Shown in pieces: positions 30,895 through 37,678 of a stretch of DNA of 64,000 bases. The translations under genes were made by a program, and so were the position numbers. Numbering within the stretch: position 1 is the stretch's first letter; the number at the start of each line of letters is the position of its first letter. The notes below the pieces were generated by a model, which had not been told where the DNA came from, made no database searches, and saw only the letters and a program-made list of their open reading frames with translations. Source of the DNA: Alphaproteobacteria bacterium (GTDB lineage: Bacteria > Pseudomonadota > Alphaproteobacteria > RF32 > CAG-239); NCBI GenBank assembly GCA_045116295.1, contig JBGULQ010000013.1, forward strand, positions 67,745 through 131,744, in the 5' to 3' direction.

Positions 30895-32559
30895 ATGAAA
30901 GATGAGTTAAAAAGTTTCTACACTGCCATTTTATTATCGCTAGCAGTAATTTTTTTATGTAACTATTTTTTTGTTGATAGCAAACCTCAGTCGCAAACTG
31001 CGACACAACAACCAACACCTCAACCGGTTGAAAAAATCACCAAAAAAGAATTGCCCGACTTATCCAAAACCAAACACGAAACTGTTGAGCACGTTTTACA
31101 ATCATCTTCCCGAATTCAAATATCCAATGACTTTTTAAAAGGTTCGATTCGAGTTGCCGGCGGACGCATTGATAATCTTTGGCTGAAAAAATATAAGCAA
31201 TCTCTTGATAAAAACAGTCCCGAAGTCGAGCTTTTTGCACCGGCAAAAACCACCAATCCATATTATGCGGAATTTGGGTGGCTATCTTCCGACAAACAGC
31301 TCAAACTCCCGACAGCCGACACTTTGTGGACGGTAAAAGGCTCCCAACTCACACCGCAAACCCCCTTAACACTCGAATGGAACAATGACGAGGGGCTGCG
31401 TTTTATTACTCAAATTTCCCTTGATGAGCATTATATGTTCAATATCAATCAATCTGTTGAAAACAATTCTTCATCTCCGATAACTATTTATCCATATGGA
31501 CTGATTGCCCGCAACTACGAGCAAACACCGCGAGCAAGCGTCGTCCACGAAGGAATGATCGGCGTATTTAATGACGAACTTGAAGAAATCAAATATTCTG
31601 ACTTAAAAAAAGGCGCAAAAAAATTTGAAACCTCCAAAGGCTGGCTTGGTTTTTCCGACCGTTATTGGTTTTCGGCCTTTATACTCAACTCCCAACAACC
31701 ATCAAACATAACTTTCAGCCAAAACGACAATCTTTACCAAACAGATTTTGTTGGAGCTCCTTTAACTATTGAAGCCGGTGGCATTGCAACATCACAACAA
31801 ATGCTTTATGCCGGTGCCAAAGAAATAAAACTTTTGGATAAATACACAAAGAACCTTAACATCAACAAGTTTGATTTAGCAGTAGATTTCGGCTGGTACT
31901 ACTTTTTAACCAAACCGTTTTTCTACATTTTAGATTATCTTTATAAAATTATCGGCAATATGGGCTGGGCAATTTTGCTTTTTGCCGCTTTGCTGCGTTT
32001 GGCAATGTTTCCAATCGCCAACAAGTCATATGAAAGCATGGCAAAAATGAAAAAACTGCAACCTAAATTAAAAGAACTTCAGGAAAAATATGCTGATGAC
32101 AAACGCAAAATTCAACAAGAAACCCTGTTTCTCTACCAAAAAGAAAAGATAAATCCGGCATCCGGCTGCCTACCGATGTTTATACAAATTCCGGTATTCT
32201 TTTCACTTTACAAAGTGTTGAATATTGCAATAGAAATCCGTCAAGCCCCGTTCATCGGCTGGATAAAAGACCTTTCTGCTCCAGACCCGCTAACCATCTC
32301 GACTTGGTCACACTTGCCGATTCCCGGATTTTTAGATATAGGCATTTGGCCAATCATCATGGGTATCACCATGTTCATTCAGCAAAAGATGAATCCGGCA
32401 CCTACCAACAAAGATCAGGCTCGCGCTTTTGCCATGATGCCCCTCATCTTTACTTTTATGATGGGACATTTTGCCGCCGGTCTTGTGATTTATTGGTCGT
32501 TCAGCAACTTGCTTTCTATTTTGCAACAACGAGCCATTCTTTATAAAAACAAGGCATAA
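30895..32559 (+). CDS. yidC: Membrane protein insertase YidC
   Basis: 554 aa. Large periplasmic domain plus the conserved GWAILLFAALLRLAMFPI...MKKLQPKLKELQEKY...GCLPMFIQIPVFFSLY core. Confidence 0.98.
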   Translation: MKDELKSFYTAILLSLAVIFLCNYFFVDSKPQSQTATQQPTPQPVEKITKKELPDLSKTKHETVEHVLQSSSRIQISNDFLKGSIRVAGGRIDNLWLKKYKQSLDKNSPEVELFAPAKTTNPYYAEFGWLSSDKQLKLPTADTLWTVKGSQLTPQTPLTLEWNNDEGLRFITQISLDEHYMFNINQSVENNSSSPITIYPYGLIARNYEQTPRASVVHEGMIGVFNDELEEIKYSDLKKGAKKFETSKGWLGFSDRYWFSAFILNSQQPSNITFSQNDNLYQTDFVGAPLTIEAGGIATSQQMLYAGAKEIKLLDKYTKNLNINKFDLAVDFGWYYFLTKPFFYILDYLYKIIGNMGWAILLFAALLRLAMFPIANKSYESMAKMKKLQPKLKELQEKYADDKRKIQQETLFLYQKEKINPASGCLPMFIQIPVFFSLYKVLNIAIEIRQAPFIGWIKDLSAPDPLTISTWSHLPIPGFLDIGIWPIIMGITMFIQQKMNPAPTNKDQARAFAMMPLIFTFMMGHFAAGLVIYWSFSNLLSILQQRAILYKNKA

Positions 32560-32562
32560 GCT

Positions 32563-33207
32563 ATGGAAACTCCAACCCCGCGCTACACAGAAGAAGCTTT
32601 GCAACGAGGCAAAAATCTTTTTGCCTCGGATTGCTCCTTCATGCTCGGGGTTGCAGCTTTATCCCAATTACCCCCTGACAATGAGCTTGATGAAATTGCT
32701 TTTGCCGGACGTTCAAACGTTGGAAAATCCAGCCTGATTAACGCCCTCACCGGCAGGAAAACTCTTGCCAAAACCTCCAACACTCCCGGGCGCACTCAAC
32801 AATTAAATTACTTCAACTTAGGCAACAAACTTTATATTGTCGATATGCCCGGTTATGGTTTTGCACAAGCACCAGATTCGCTCGTTAAAAAATGGCAAAA
32901 GATGATTTTTGCCTATCTTCAGGGAAGAGTAAATCTAAAAAGGGTATTTTTACTTATTGATTCACGACACGGTATCAAAAAAGTTGATTCCGAAATAATG
33001 GAAATGCTTGATAAAGCCGCCGTTAACTATCAAATAATTTTAACCAAAACCGACAAGATTTCTGCAGTTGAGTTAGCAAAAGTTATCAACGAAACTAACA
33101 AAATAATCAAAGAGCATGCCGCCGCACACATTAACCTCATTGCCACCAGCTCTGAAAAAAATCGCGGTATAGACGAACTCCGCGCCGAAATTGCCGGTTT
33201 GATCTGA
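32563..33207 (+). CDS. engB: Ribosome biogenesis GTP-binding protein YihA/EngB
   Basis: 214 aa. G1 [15 protein letters not shown]3 DMPGYG, G4 TKTDK. Confidence 0.95.
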
Positions 33208-33354
33208 CTATTTAATTGTCCTCAAATAACTTTAAATTCTAAACGAAAAATGTTGACGCCTATGCCTTGTTCCGTGTAATCTTAAAATATCGTGATTGTA
33301 TTAGCAAATTTAACAGATTTATGTACATCAACAGATATTTATGGAAAATACTGA

Positions 33355-33597
33355 ATGAACAAAACAGTTGAACAGCACATAAGCAATATCGAAAATGCTA
33401 ATTTTATAATTTTAAACTTAATCCAAAAGCTCTCAATTTTATCCCAAAATTGTGATGAAACTACAGTCCAAACTTACAAACAGCAGATTCGCCAGTTGCA
33501 AAAAGACCTCAAACATCTTGACAATCCTCAAATCTTTGCCAAAGTACAAAACACATACATACCGTACTTAAAACTATTATTGGAGGCCGACAAATGA
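33355..33597 (+). CDS. 80-aa predicted all-helical protein, candidate antitoxin/adaptor of the downstream zeta-family kinase
   Basis: Overlaps the kinase start by ATGA (33594-33597). Heptad-like composition. No family recognised. Confidence 0.55.
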   Translation: MNKTVEQHISNIENANFIILNLIQKLSILSQNCDETTVQTYKQQIRQLQKDLKHLDNPQIFAKVQNTYIPYLKLLLEADK

Positions 33598-34517
33598 TCG
33601 AATATGCCCCGCTTCTCTCACCTGAAGAACACGAAAAATGGGTTAACGATTTAATTATTCCGACCTTTACCCAAGGTCGTACCCCTTCAAAAAATCCGAC
33701 ATTTATTCTAATCACCGGCCAACCCGGAGCCGGAAAAAGCTACTCTTCACATCGCTATGCACAAGACCATCTTGAACAAACTCCGGTACTTTTTGGCGCT
33801 GACGACATCAGAGCCTTACACCCTCAAGCCGAGGAAATCATGCGTACGGATCGTACAAACTACCCTTTTATCACAAAAAAAGATTCCGGCTTAGCCCGAG
33901 CCAAACTTCTCGACTACTGTTTTCAACACGGTTACAATATTGTTGTTGAAAGCATTCTCTCCAGCAGAGAAGACTACAAAATGCCGACACTTCTCCAAGC
34001 CCGTGAACAGGGATATCGGGTTGAGTGCGCCGCGCTTGCTGTACACCACAGTGTCAGCGAAGTTTCAATTTTCTGGCGACAGGAAAAACAACTCGCGATT
34101 ACTAAAGAAATAGGCTTTCCCCCAACTCTTGAGATTCATGATCAGGTTTATTCATGGTTACCACACATTCTGGCCAACATGAACGACTATCAAACTGTCG
34201 ATAAACTCAGCATTTACACTCGTTCATACCAATGCTACTATGACAGCGACGTAGACCCAAAAGATCCCATTTATATCAAACAACGTATGAAAGAGGGACG
34301 CAACAGCTACCTCAATCTTGAAGACATGAGCGATATTGCCATCAAATGGCAGGAAGTTCTGCGCATGATGGAAACTCGCGGCGCACCACAAAAAGAAATC
34401 GACAACGTTCGCGAACTAAGTGCCAAATTTATGAAAAACTCCGGACTTACCATGTCTTCAGAATTCAGAAATTATTCGGCTTTGCTTAATCAAATTAAAC
34501 GAGGCAGCAGAGACTGA
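33594..34517 (+). CDS. Zeta toxin family kinase (P-loop)
   Basis: 307 aa. Walker A ILITGQPGAGKS, then VLFGADDIRALHP, YNIVVESIL, GYRVECAALAV and HDQV, in the same order as the PezT/zeta blocks (GGQPGAGKS, DxDxFR..HP, YNLIIEGT, GY.V.L.V, HD). Confidence 0.75.
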   Translation: MIEYAPLLSPEEHEKWVNDLIIPTFTQGRTPSKNPTFILITGQPGAGKSYSSHRYAQDHLEQTPVLFGADDIRALHPQAEEIMRTDRTNYPFITKKDSGLARAKLLDYCFQHGYNIVVESILSSREDYKMPTLLQAREQGYRVECAALAVHHSVSEVSIFWRQEKQLAITKEIGFPPTLEIHDQVYSWLPHILANMNDYQTVDKLSIYTRSYQCYYDSDVDPKDPIYIKQRMKEGRNSYLNLEDMSDIAIKWQEVLRMMETRGAPQKEIDNVRELSAKFMKNSGLTMSSEFRNYSALLNQIKRGSRD

Positions 34518-35101
34518 TGAAAAAGACATTTTATATTTTTCGCCACGGACAAAGTAGCTACAACCTTGCCGGACGCACACAGGGGCAAACCAACGATTCG
34601 GTTTTGACCGAACTCGGACAACAGCAGGCTGTCCAAGTCGGACAAAGACTGCAAGACAAACATATAGAGCTCATTTTATGCTCGCCTTTGGTTCGTGCAC
34701 GCCAAACCGCAGAGTTAGCCAATCGCAGTCTTAATGTTCCTATTATCTATGACGACCGCTTTATTGAGGTCAACGTTGGAGAAATAGAAGGCTTGCACTA
34801 TACTGAAATAATGGAAAAATATGGCGAAAAATACCAGCAATGGCGCAGCTCTGATCAGCAATTTGAAAACCTGCGTTTTAATGGCGGAGAAAGCAAAAAA
34901 GAAGTCCGCCAACGTGTTTTTGCCGGTCTGCAGGAATATGCCGAACATTCACCTTACTCCGTGATTGCCGTTTCTTCTCACGGCATAATGCTGACACAAC
35001 TGTTTATTGCTTTGGGAGAAAAAGCCATAGATGTCCCCAACGGCTCAATTTTACAGCTTGAATACCAAGACAATTCGTGGAAAATCGTCGGTCTTATATA
35101 A
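34517..35101 (+). CDS. Histidine phosphatase family protein (PGAM-like branch 1)
   Basis: 194 aa. RHGQSSYN (RHG), SPLVRARQT, GEIEG and SSHG, so all the catalytic signature blocks are present. The start overlaps the kinase stop (TGATG). Confidence 0.85.
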   Translation: MKKTFYIFRHGQSSYNLAGRTQGQTNDSVLTELGQQQAVQVGQRLQDKHIELILCSPLVRARQTAELANRSLNVPIIYDDRFIEVNVGEIEGLHYTEIMEKYGEKYQQWRSSDQQFENLRFNGGESKKEVRQRVFAGLQEYAEHSPYSVIAVSSHGIMLTQLFIALGEKAIDVPNGSILQLEYQDNSWKIVGLI

Positions 35102-35387
35102 ATGAGGATATGCTTATACTCCAAAATCGGAGCATTCGCAAACTCATCTACCCATAAACAGACACGCTTTGTTGTACAAACACCTCTTACAAACCGAAAA
35201 TTAAATTCCAGTAATTATACAACAATTTAGCATCAATAATACGACAGACATATCCTGCCACATTATTTAAGCATCAGTCAAAATTTTTGGTACCCTTAAA
35301 ACCACAGACAAACAACTTCAGAAATACCCACTAGATATCATAAATACTGTAAACATGCCAATATATAGTGCATTTCTAGCACAAAAG

Positions 35388-36110
35388 CTAGCGTATAAAG
35401 TTCTTGACTGCTCTCTTTATTGTTGCAAACGCACACAAACTATGTGCTCTGGCAATACGCCTTTTGCGGTCGAAGTATTCTTGCATGGTTTGAGCATCTT
35501 TTTCTTTCATCTCTGGCGCAATCAACAGATTATCAATGATGTTTAATAATTTTTTTTGTGTTTTTTTGTTCTGTTTGTACGCTTGAGTCATTTTATAACG
35601 CCCTTCCAAAGGAATAGCATAACCTTCATCATCGTACTTTTCTTTTGAAAAATTTTTTTGAAAATCTATAATTTTATCAAGCACAATCTTTAGAGTTGTG
35701 GCCTCATTCTCTTTAGAAAAATCTGCAAAGCTTCCATACATTTTCATTCTATCCAAAGTTTTTTCACCCAAAGACACGTCAACATACGTCAATCCCGGAG
35801 AGGATTGAAAAACATACCCAGTCTCGTGTGGTGAACTAGAATACGCGCGAATAATCAAAGGAGGATTTTTTAAAGACTCATCGTTTGCATTAAAAATTGT
35901 ATACTTTAGATAAGATACATGCATATCTTTTTGATAAGAGGCTTTTTGTTTACCAATGTAAAATGTACCTTTATTTGTTTTTACGTTGTAAAATTCTACT
36001 GGAGCATCTTCTTTGTATTCATAATTCGGGTATTTGTTTATTATTGCATTTAGAGTTTGCCGTAATTCATTATCTTCAATTTTGGTTTGTTTAAGCATTA
36101 GCTCCTCCAT
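35388..36110 (-). CDS. Hypothetical 240-aa cytoplasmic/lysine-rich protein, orphan
   Basis: Long ORF with no signal peptide and no recognisable motif. It lies inside the tRNA-Arg-proximal accessory patch. Confidence 0.55.
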   Translation of the reverse strand: MEELMLKQTKIEDNELRQTLNAIINKYPNYEYKEDAPVEFYNVKTNKGTFYIGKQKASYQKDMHVSYLKYTIFNANDESLKNPPLIIRAYSSSPHETGYVFQSSPGLTYVDVSLGEKTLDRMKMYGSFADFSKENEATTLKIVLDKIIDFQKNFSKEKYDDEGYAIPLEGRYKMTQAYKQNKKTQKKLLNIIDNLLIAPEMKEKDAQTMQEYFDRKRRIARAHSLCAFATIKRAVKNFIR

Positions 36111-36291
36111 CTAACCTCGACCCTCTAATTGTACACCTAAATGACATTAAAATCAAACAAATTCATAGCGAAAAGTCATAACTTTTCTCCCATTACTTGA
36201 TAACTATATTTTTTATAAAATGCGATATTTCTTCTAACTCAATTGTAGACTTCTTTAGTTTTTCAAAACAACAATCACATAAACACAAAGT

Positions 36292-36324
36292 CCACTTGCT
36301 TTAAAAACATAAAACCCCACCTTT
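36292..36324. repeat. 33-nt copy of the tRNA-Arg-proximal junction repeat
   Basis: CCACTTGCTTTAAAAACATAAAACCCCACCTTT matches 37350-37382 at 32 of 33 positions. Confidence 0.8.
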
Positions 36325-36547
36325 TGAAGATGTATTTCAAGATTACGCCGACGGGCTTTCCCCCGAAAATATTGTTCAAGAACTTGATAAAATCAGCAAC
36401 GTCGCTAAAACAAATATCTTTATTGATGCCGAAGGAAAATTAAAAGACAACAATTCTTTTTCATTTGAAAGAGCCACCCAATTTGTACAAAACGCACTGA
36501 ATTGGAACAGACTGCATCTTCCCACCAACCAGCACGAAATGCTTTAA
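36305..36547 (+). pseudogene. Possible start-less C-terminal gene remnant abutting the repeat
   Basis: 80 open codons with no ATG, GTG or TTG start (...EDVFQDYADGLSPENIVQELDKISNVAKTNIFIDAEGKLKDNNSFSFERATQFVQNALNWNRLHLPTNQHEML*). The open frame begins inside the 36292-36324 repeat. A chance ORF cannot be excluded. Confidence 0.3.
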
Positions 36548-36666
36548 TCTTTAGTCATACTTGTTTATCTTAAAAAAATAACTTGACAAAAAGTCGTTTT
36601 TGTATATAATGCCAACCACTTGAGTATTATTAATATTTCTTTACTATTATTTAAAATCTTTACATT

Positions 36667-37278
36667 ATGAAAAAAATTCTTTTTATTTTAATTGCCATGC
36701 TTGTTGCTTTTCAAGCAACTTCGCAAGAATTCCTCACGGTAGAGCACAGCTGGATTGACAAACATGGATATCCTGGGGTACGTCTTTCAAACGGAGTAGA
36801 AGTGTTTCACCTTGGCGGCGACAGTAAAGGTAGTTTTTATAGCTCATCAAGAAAAGAGACATGTCGTACTAACTTCAAGAAAAGGACTAAATACCCAAAG
36901 GGTGCAATAATTTACCATCAAGGCACAATTTATGAGTTTGAGAAAGTAATTCTGCGAGGAACTTATACCATCACAGAAGTATTTCGAAACGAAATCAATG
37001 TTGAGACCCAAGCCCACATCAATGGTGCATTCAGCTACAACAGCTTTCTTGCTTTTATATCGGCTTTTGGTGGTGGCGGAGGTGGAAAAGCCAAGGGTTC
37101 CTTTTCCGGTTCGATGCAAGGTGGCACGAAAACCGTTGTCAATGTGTTTTTTGGCGATGGTAAATATGCTTCAATCACCGCTGCAGAAGATCCCATCTGG
37201 CTTCAGGCTAAACCCGGAATGAAAATCGAACATTATACCGTGCGTGACGTGAACTTGTACAAACTCATCATCAGATGA
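36667..37278 (+). CDS. Secreted hypothetical protein with a Gly-rich segment
   Basis: 203 aa. Signal peptide MKKILFILIAMLVAFQATS and an FGGGGGGKAKGSFSGSMQGG stretch. It is flanked by the two 33-nt repeats. Confidence 0.6.
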   Translation: MKKILFILIAMLVAFQATSQEFLTVEHSWIDKHGYPGVRLSNGVEVFHLGGDSKGSFYSSSRKETCRTNFKKRTKYPKGAIIYHQGTIYEFEKVILRGTYTITEVFRNEINVETQAHINGAFSYNSFLAFISAFGGGGGGKAKGSFSGSMQGGTKTVVNVFFGDGKYASITAAEDPIWLQAKPGMKIEHYTVRDVNLYKLIIR

Positions 37279-37337
37279 TCTTATTCATCATAAGCCTCCC
37301 TCATGGGGGCTTATGACATTTTAAAACCTACAATTGC

Positions 37338-37422
37338 GTTCAAAACCCGCCACTTGCTTTAAAAACACAAAACCCCACCTTTAACAGTGGAGCCTTACTA
37401 AAAAACTGGCGCGTTCGGCGGA
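37338..37422. repeat. ~85-nt duplicate of the tRNA-Arg 3' flank plus tRNA 3' end (att-like)
   Basis: Aligns with 37545-37618. It includes TGGCGCGTTCGGCGG (37407-37421) against the tRNA 3' end TGGCGCGCTCGGCGG (37602-37616), a 14 of 15 match. Confidence 0.75.
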
Positions 37423-37565
37423 TGGCCGAAGAAAAAACTGCCTGAATGCAGTTTTTTCAAGGAGACACAATGAGGCTTGATTTTGTGAGCAAGATTTCAT
37501 CGAAGCGAAACAAAATCTTTAGCCGGAATTGAACGAACTCACAAGTTCGAAGCCCGCCGGATTTA

Positions 37566-37594
37566 AAACGCAAAACCCCTCTTTAATCGAGGGG
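37566..37594 (-). terminator. Terminator hairpin downstream of tRNA-Arg
   Basis: Stem CCCCTC / GAGGGG (37576-37581 / 37589-37594), with a T-rich tract on the minus strand. Confidence 0.55.
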
Positions 37595-37601
37595 TTTATA
37601 A

Positions 37602-37678
37602 TGGCGCGCTCGGCGGGATTCGAACTCACAACCTTCTGATCCGTAGTCAGATGCTCTATCCAATTGAGCTACGAGCGC
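37602..37678 (-). tRNA. tRNA-Arg (anticodon ACG), CCA encoded
   Basis: Reverse complement is GCGCTCG-TA-GCTC-AATTGGATA-GAGC-A-TCTGA-CTACGGA-TCAGA-AGGTT-GTGAG-TTCGAAT-CCCGC-CGAGCGC-G-CCA. The T-stem has one A-C mismatch and one G-U pair. Confidence 0.88.

Follow-up and report, generated by a model that had tools for sequence, protein, structure and literature searches.

The stretch of DNA analysed here, called the window, comprises 64,000 nucleotides (nt) of contig JBGULQ010000013.1 from an Alphaproteobacteria bacterium. In its middle, three consecutive open reading frames (ORFs) code for a small helical protein (S), a kinase of the zeta/PezT fold (K), and a histidine phosphatase (P), together referred to as the trio. 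The trio and the region in front of it consist of the following features:

33208..33354, plus strand: AT-rich spacer (fraction of guanine plus cytosine, GC, 0.279), presumed from its position to be the promoter or regulatory region of the operon
33355..33597, plus strand: ORF1, small protein of 80 amino acids (aa) with three predicted helices, a putative stoichiometric inhibitor of the kinase to judge from its position and predicted secondary structure
33594..34517, plus strand: P-loop kinase of the zeta/PezT fold, 307 aa, Pfam family Zeta_toxin, with intact catalytic residues and a remodelled acceptor site
34517..35101, plus strand: branch-1 histidine phosphatase, 194 aa, Pfam family His_Phos_1, with a complete catalytic set

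Read directly from the sequence, the stop codon of ORF1 and the start codon of the kinase gene overlap by 4 nt (ATGA at 33594-33597), and the stop codon of the kinase gene and the start codon of the phosphatase gene overlap by 1 nt (TGATG at 34515-34519). A GGAGG Shine-Dalgarno sequence lies within ORF1, 7 nt ahead of the kinase start. The spacer upstream of ORF1 holds a single weak sigma-70-like match at 33310-33339, and a scan for promoters and terminators near the trio gave nothing better than chance, promoter-like matches being no commoner than in shuffled sequence. A preliminary description of this DNA had reported three plus-strand ORFs joined by ATGA and TGATG, and its coordinates and overlaps are exact. 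The motifs that it had picked out by eye are likewise all present, ILITGQPGAGKS, GADDIRALHP, YNIVVES, and GYRVECAALAV in the kinase and RHG, SPLVRARQT, GEIEG, and SHG in the phosphatase. It had also placed the kinase in the zeta/PezT family, which both Pfam and the predicted fold uphold, and had credited the phosphatase with every catalytic block of its superfamily, as the Pfam match and the invariant residues described below bear out.

The middle protein is a true zeta-fold kinase. It matches the Pfam model Zeta_toxin (PF06414) with E=1.4e-30 and 106.6 bits (cut-off 22.3), covering 188 of the 199 profile positions, and the only solved structures related to it by sequence are those of PezT (2P5T, E=3.7e-17) and zeta (1GVN/3Q8X, E=3.3e-9). 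An AlphaFold2 (AF2) model built on 25 homologues has a predicted local distance difference test score (pLDDT) of 92.8. When this model was compared with solved structures by Foldseek, the best matches were 1GVN_B (template modelling score, TM, 0.73/0.82), 3Q8X, and 2P5T (TM 0.70/0.87), with overall TM values of 0.69-0.88 and E values down to 5e-16, while AvrRxo1, PFKFB kinase domains, PSTK, ng_zeta1, and polynucleotide kinases ranked well behind zeta and PezT. The Walker A lysine K48 (K46 in zeta), D70 (D67 in zeta, D66 in PezT), R162 (R158 in zeta), and H182 are invariant in 25 family members, and E119, the equivalent of zeta E116, is glutamate or aspartate across the family. The enzyme is catalytically complete and probably active.

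The acceptor site is a different matter. In zeta, Thr118 and Arg120 bind the UDP phosphates of UDP-N-acetylglucosamine (UNAG) and Glu100 binds the ribose, and a Thr-to-Val mutant of PezT is non-toxic (PMC3062530). In the clade studied here, the equivalent of Thr118 is I121 (Ile or Val throughout), that of Arg120 is S123 (variable), and that of Glu100 is R102 (an invariant Arg). Thr128, retained as T132, is besides the catalytic Asp the sole UNAG contact that the clade has kept. Where canonical zeta proteins have E-G-T-x-R, the clade has E/D-S-I/V-L, and the HMMER alignment places Phe175 at the position of zeta Arg171, G-F-P replacing G-R. Residues T94-K95-x-D97, R102, D127, and M130 are newly invariant in the clade. 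Because the equivalents of Thr118, Arg120, and Glu100 are replaced, UNAG is an improbable substrate, at least if bound in the manner known from zeta and PezT. The kinase also scores only 81.5 bits against the NCBIfam equivalog model for PezT (NF041574), far below its cut-off of 470. Its acceptor residues and this score both speak against classing it with PezT or with the UNAG kinases. The UNAG or NAD substrate implied in the preliminary description is thus not supported.

A search of 1.84 billion representative proteins yielded 2727 relatives of the kinase. The closest ones outside the trio clade keep the canonical E-G-T-x-R and G-R motifs, and remodelling of the pocket is therefore specific to the phosphatase-linked clade. 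In 10 long zeta-family relatives, neither kinase-phosphatase nor small-kinase fusions were found and a His_Phos_1 domain was absent from all 10; these proteins are tandem Zeta_toxin duplications, a DUF3991/Toprim fusion, or proteins with unannotated tails, and the N-terminal extension of one of them (P0298) is unrelated to the small protein. Among the nearest out-of-clade relatives, the set P0225, P0226, P0227, and P0231 comprises proteins of about 610 aa in which the Zeta_toxin domain occurs twice in tandem, and one protein of 880 aa that combines tandem Zeta_toxin domains with DUF3991 and Toprim. We know of no characterisation of the tandem Zeta_toxin or the Zeta_toxin-DUF3991-Toprim architectures.

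The phosphatase matches His_Phos_1 (PF00300) with E=2e-45 and 155.3 bits (cut-off 21.7). R9, H10, N16, R60, E84, and H155 are invariant in 11 orthologues, and the invariance of R9, H10, R60, E84, and H155 extends to 22 trio and 11 solo homologues. The protein falls below every NCBIfam equivalog cut-off, scoring 104.3 against 162.9 for CobC, 102.8 against 350 for PspA, 97.3 against 261 for GpmB, and 38.6 against 74.5 for SixA (E=9e-10 over residues 5-73), and it lies far under the cut-offs of all models for cofactor-dependent phosphoglycerate mutase (dPGM). Its closest solved structures are phosphoserine phosphatase 4IJ5, PhoE (1EBB/1H2E), CobC, and glucosyl-3-phosphoglycerate phosphatase. On the evidence of its sequence, it is a complete branch-1 histidine phosphatase and none of the named housekeeping enzymes. 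That it might be a CobC or GpmB orthologue adjacent by chance was considered and rejected, given its scores below all equivalog cut-offs and the conserved linkage reported below.

ORF1 is a real gene, because it belongs to a family of 70 clusters, all of them unannotated, has a ratio of nonsynonymous to synonymous substitution rates (dN/dS) of about 0.16, and is predicted to form three helices. The dN/dS ratio indicates purifying selection, yet ORF1 is the fastest-evolving member of the trio. The AF2 model, taken with database homologues, has helices at residues 3-31, 35-54, and 57-79 and a pLDDT of 83. A Pfam search found no significant family match and no helix-turn-helix (HTH) motif, a profile search against PDB chains gave no match to epsilon or PezA (the best hit, E=0.086, is unrelated), and Foldseek with the model gave none either (best E=3.1). 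Epsilon, itself a bundle of three helices, keeps zeta from binding ATP (PMC5923241), and the size, position, and predicted helices of ORF1 therefore fit an epsilon-type partner. By this analogy and from the predicted structure, the small protein may act as an inhibitor of the kinase. One lineage, represented by loci L021 and L109, lacks the small gene, and its kinase carries a C-terminal extension of about 25 aa that might stand in for the small protein. Ahead of the kinase gene, this lineage has a spacer of about 270-420 bp (L021:2078-2420) with a terminator-like hairpin, aacggggaaaggtttttccccgtttttttt.

Homologues of the kinase with 40-93% identity come from metagenome-assembled genomes (MAGs) of rumen and gut origin labelled Alphaproteobacteria, Rhodospirillales, or Proteobacteria, and all three genes are present in 15 of 15 kinase-anchored loci. 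Additional loci were obtained by a phosphatase-anchored scan of metagenomes and by look-ups of the small protein, and the census was made non-redundant at 95% phosphatase identity:

P-S-K, complete: 16
S-K-P, complete: 4
S, K, and P all present but K disrupted: 2 (L015, L020)
K-P without the small gene: 1 lineage (L021/L109)
P-S, with a clean deletion of the kinase gene: 1 (L108)
phosphatase on its own, flanked by 4 kb or more in each direction: 5 clusters

Non-redundant modules holding all three genes thus number 22, the two with a disrupted kinase included. In every complete module the small gene lies directly upstream of the kinase gene, and the phosphatase gene may stand on either side of this pair yet always abuts it. 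Most of the intergenic gaps measure -41 to +11 nt, and a single one reaches 104 nt. The modules occupy at least five unrelated neighbourhoods, among them yidC-engB, glycosyltransferase/GLF, accA-lexA, and SIR2/queH/alpha-beta-hydrolase; these were counted from annotated contexts, as clustering of flanking genes over-merged loci through common paralogues such as ABC transporters. Wherever flanking sequence existed, L021/L109 included, no kinase of the family was found without an adjacent phosphatase gene. We conclude that the trio genes are held together by selection and are not chance neighbours; the co-occurrence of the three genes in other genomes, which the preliminary description had put forward as a test, is borne out, although with two gene orders.

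Two of the neighbourhoods deserve mention in their own right. An Abhydrolase_1 gene is situated directly upstream of the phosphatase gene, often overlapping it, in the majority of P-S-K loci and also in some of those with a solo phosphatase (for example L104:2500-3447, L102:3524-4444, and L007:4268-5188). This gene is itself preceded by queH and a divergent SIR2 gene, is absent from the clade of the window, and may be a facultative fourth member of an ancestral operon. In the L004/L009/L015 lineage (L004:475-5719), the trio lies directly 3' of genes for glycosyltransferases, UDP-galactopyranose mutase (GLF), and DUF4422/Glyco_transf_8 proteins. As zeta-family kinases act on UDP-sugars, this nucleotide-sugar context is of note, though it may be a coincidence.

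Loss of genes from the module is asymmetric. In L108, an AT-rich spacer of 470 bp takes the place of the kinase gene, in which tblastn detected no kinase remnant, and the phosphatase and small genes are intact. The kinase gene of L015 lacks about 31 codons and is frameshifted, and that of L020 carries a frameshift. Among the solo phosphatase genes, those of L058, L029, and L066 still adjoin the Abhydrolase_1 hydrolase gene, and others adjoin umuDC. In a sample of a few dozen lineages, the kinase is thus lost or broken with its partners kept and never the reverse; it follows that the kinase is dispensable, and that the partners, above all the phosphatase, are not dispensable to the kinase. Such an asymmetry is what one would expect of a toxin and its antidote, and suggests that the genes stand in this relation. 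At L058, a gene for a MazG-like nucleotide pyrophosphohydrolase (PF03819, E=1e-8; L058:4666-5001) lies between the hydrolase and solo phosphatase genes, and an ORF of 230 aa follows that by eye resembles methylthioadenosine/S-adenosylhomocysteine (MTA/SAH) nucleosidases. This arrangement may hint at nucleotide-type substrates for the phosphatase family.

Around the trio, the window contains these further features:

30895-32559: yidC, upstream of the trio
32563-33207: engB, upstream of the trio
35388-36110, minus strand: orphan ORF of 240 aa, no family match
36667-37278, plus strand: orphan ORF of 203 aa, no family match, with a signal-peptide-like N-terminus and a Gly-rich stretch
37602-37678, minus strand: tRNA-Arg(acg)

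Three related loci share the backbone, with the following identities to the window:

L073: YidC 99%, EngB 100%, small protein 99%, kinase 99%, phosphatase past the contig end
L019: YidC 85%, EngB 90%, small protein 64%, kinase 89%, phosphatase 93%
L008: YidC 72%, EngB 80%, small protein 61%, kinase 66%, phosphatase 68%

L019 has the same yidC-engB-trio arrangement, its tRNA-Arg(acg) gene lies 186 bp past the phosphatase gene, and the genes that follow match the window from 37887 onward. The window therefore bears an extra segment of about 2.5 kb (35102-37601), which adjoins the 3' end of the tRNA-Arg gene and is absent from L019 (compare L019:5586-5770). The GC of this segment is 0.31-0.34 over 35102-36666 and about 0.42 over the 203-aa ORF. 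L024 encodes a protein 99% identical to that of the 240-aa ORF and one 44% identical to that of the 203-aa ORF. No integrase was seen in the segment, which resembles variable cargo of the kind found at tRNA integration sites. Between engB and the small gene, too, the spacing differs, at about 950 bp in L019 (2874-3826) versus 147 bp in the window (33208-33354).

With a GC of 0.44, the trio itself does not stand out from the window (0.40). In a comparison of the window with L019, dN/dS comes to 0.023 for the kinase, 0.031 for the phosphatase, 0.044 for YidC, and 0.052 for EngB, ratios that are rough as dS is saturated, and the kinase and the phosphatase match the housekeeping genes in the strength of purifying selection. 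The trio is chromosomal, is inherited vertically within the yidC-engB backbone, and is specific to a clade of uncultured low-GC Alphaproteobacteria of gut and rumen. No family member was found among the viral contigs of IMG/VR or on plasmids, where the best matches were canonical zeta toxins at 30% identity or less; of two plasmid zeta examples, the one from Agrobacterium has a small upstream gene and neither has a phosphatase neighbour. PADLOC-DB v2 gave noise-level matches only (E=0.002-0.009), and none for the phosphatase. The trio lacks the mobile or patchy distribution that is typical of toxin-antitoxin loci. The preliminary description had regarded it as cargo of a degraded island next to tRNA-Arg and as a possible defence switch. 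The first idea is rejected, since the backbone is shared, the composition is unremarkable, and the island is a separate insertion that begins after the phosphatase gene; the second finds no backing in defence models, phages, or plasmids.

The reading that we prefer, with slightly less than even confidence, is that the trio constitutes a domesticated toxin-antidote or metabolite switch, in which the product of the kinase would restrain growth, the small protein would gate the kinase, and the phosphatase would remove the product. In such a switch, the kinase would transfer phosphate from ATP to a small anionic metabolite that resembles a nucleotide and is probably other than UNAG bound in the zeta/PezT style, and build-up of the product would slow or stop growth. 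The three-helix small protein would bind the kinase stoichiometrically and restrain it as epsilon restrains zeta. The phosphatase would hydrolyse the kinase product, rendering the effect reversible and covering leaky kinase activity. The module as a whole would be a toxin-antidote system with an enzymatic reversal arm that has been domesticated as a reversible switch of growth or metabolism. We favour this reading because the kinase is complete and has a new pocket, the phosphatase is always linked, the small protein is placed like an antitoxin, the kinase alone is lost, and purifying selection goes together with vertical descent. Somewhat more tentatively, the trio may represent a previously unrecognised class of toxin-antidote or metabolite switch, composed of a zeta-fold kinase of new specificity, a dedicated phosphatase that erases its product, and a small proteic gate.

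Several points weigh against such a switch. Vertical descent, strong selection on the kinase, and absence from plasmids, phages, and defence models fit a housekeeping pathway equally well. No homology of ORF1 to epsilon or PezA is detectable by either sequence or model comparison. With Phe at the position of zeta Arg171, catalytic details of the kinase may differ from those of zeta. Frameshifts in metagenomes, such as that of L020, can be sequencing errors. Moreover, solo homologues of the phosphatase (about 52% identity, identical signature motifs) exist in other gut Alphaproteobacteria; the phosphatase therefore has, or can have, a role apart from the kinase, and an ordinary metabolite may be its substrate.

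The main rival is a sequential metabolic or salvage pathway, in which the kinase and the phosphatase would act on different steps or positions, the small protein would be a scaffold or regulator, and nothing would be toxic. Precedents are the assembly of the cobalamin nucleotide loop, which ends with the histidine phosphatase CobC, and the kinase/phosphatase pairs of end healing. A pathway would suit the vertically inherited housekeeping backbone and a selection on the kinase that is on a par with that on YidC and EngB, as well as a phosphatase family that occurs without the kinase with unchanged signature motifs and whose best NCBIfam similarity is to metabolite phosphatases of the CobC and PspA types. 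It would also suit a kinase pocket that differs from that of the UNAG toxins, and the position of most P-S-K trios directly 3' of the alpha/beta-hydrolase gene that follows queH, often in overlap. However, the S-K-P clades and L001 have neither the hydrolase gene nor queH, although their trio is intact, and the trio is not accompanied by any other pathway gene. That the kinase was lost repeatedly with retention of its partners, the reverse never being seen, is expected of a harmful activity and not specifically of a pathway step, and the kinase is most closely related to zeta toxins of plasmids and chromosomes. We regard a pathway as unlikely, if still worth serious consideration.

The small gene and the kinase gene form a constant sub-unit in all but one lineage, and the phosphatase family is broader than the trio, solo members included. 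Both facts would agree with a plain two-gene pair of the epsilon/zeta type beside a functionally unconnected, lineage-specific housekeeping phosphatase. Yet the phosphatase gene has stayed next to its partners, as a rule with an overlap, even though the module has moved at least five times and the gene has switched sides; it is present in 22 of 22 non-redundant modules for which sequence is available, and is more faithful to the kinase than the small gene is, as the K-P arrangement without S in L021/L109 demonstrates. Such a fortuitous neighbourhood seems decidedly improbable.

To a similarly low degree of probability, we consider a protein-directed signalling pair, in which a protein would be the substrate of the kinase, perhaps ORF1 or some target in the cell, and the phosphatase would be a protein phosphatase. 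The superfamily does include protein phosphatases (SixA, PGAM5, Sts-1), with the SixA match over residues 5-73 as a possible pointer, the UNAG pocket is remodelled, and the small protein is the partner that evolves fastest. Against this, the phosphatase is by sequence most closely related to small-molecule phosphatases, one lineage (L021/L109) has kept the module although it lacks the small protein, and the characterised zeta-family kinases all act on nucleotide-type small molecules (PMC3062530, PMC5923241, PMC5491322). Finally, an anti-phage defence or abortive-infection switch on a mobile island is disfavoured and very improbable, for although toxin-antitoxin-like kinases can serve defence and the trio is closely followed by a variable segment and a tRNA gene, PADLOC gave only noise, the family is missing from viral contigs and plasmids, and the trio, unremarkable in GC, belongs to the conserved backbone and ends before the variable segment starts.

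Compared with known systems, the trio stands close to the type II toxin-antitoxin systems epsilon/zeta and PezAT, whose kinases, zeta of pSM19035 and PezT of S. pneumoniae, are UDP-GlcNAc 3'-kinases. It shares with them the kinase fold, the Pfam family, the Walker A Lys, the catalytic Asp, and the equivalent of Arg158, and also a small helical gene immediately upstream of and overlapping the kinase gene. It differs from them in the always-linked histidine phosphatase, in the lack of an omega-type regulator, in the replaced UNAG contacts, in its chromosomal and vertical inheritance, and in a small protein that has neither an HTH motif nor detectable homology to epsilon or PezA. AvrRxo1 is a zeta-fold NAD 3'-kinase, with Arc1 as its chaperone or antitoxin. 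Both AvrRxo1/Arc1 and ng_zeta1/ng_epsilon1 of Neisseria gonorrhoeae resemble the trio, as interpreted here, in combining a zeta-fold kinase of altered substrate range with a small protein inhibitor, whereas their kinases match the trio kinase much more weakly in structure (TM 0.44-0.49) and neither system has a phosphatase gene. For ng_zeta1, a phosphatase-like loss of the phosphorylated product was seen in vitro and left unexplained (PMC5923241).

In PFKFB (PFK-2/FBPase-2), a P-loop kinase and a branch-1 histidine phosphatase set the level of one phosphorylated metabolite, as the two enzymes of the trio would in the proposed switch. The PFKFB domains are fused, whereas the trio consists of separate polypeptides plus a small protein, and the resemblance is one of logic only; PFKFB kinase domains appear among the Foldseek matches of the kinase with E of about 1e-4 to 1e-5 and a weak TM of 0.35-0.39, and the kinase is clearly a member of the zeta clade. 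DarG strips ADP-ribose off DNA, and in type VII systems it is the toxin protein that the antitoxin modifies. DarT/DarG and type VII systems thus share with the trio, as proposed here, the principle of an antidote enzyme that undoes or pre-empts the chemistry of the toxin, but in the trio the target would be a phosphorylated small molecule, and a separate putative proteic inhibitor would be added. HipBST is likewise a three-gene operon with a kinase at its core, in that case a toxin with a small inhibitory partner, HipT being a Hanks-like protein kinase that targets TrpS and HipB a DNA-binding regulator. In contrast to the trio, its third component is no phosphatase, and none of its proteins is homologous to any protein of the trio.

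In the full texts of the open-access corpus, no paper was found that joins a zeta toxin with a histidine phosphatase or a phosphoglycerate mutase, and a review from 2023 on the diversity of PezAT systems makes no mention of one either. Within the open-access literature, the tripartite module hence appears to be undescribed, in agreement with the preliminary description, whose author knew of no module combining a zeta kinase and a histidine phosphatase.

Zeta toxins are the model for how toxin-antitoxin systems poison metabolism by phosphorylating a nucleotide-type metabolite. We know of no dedicated enzyme that would take the phosphate added by zeta off again and so let cells recover from that state. 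A zeta-family kinase with a firmly linked phosphatase would be a natural means of reversal, and recovery could then be tested directly. If the proposed switch is real, the trio would be the first zeta-family system with built-in chemical reversal and would realise the logic of PFK-2/FBPase-2 in bacteria with separate genes. After UDP-sugars and NAD, the remodelled acceptor pocket suggests a third class of zeta-family substrates, and selection of housekeeping strength in these little-known, uncultured Alphaproteobacteria of gut and rumen suggests that the module has been domesticated as a physiological switch.

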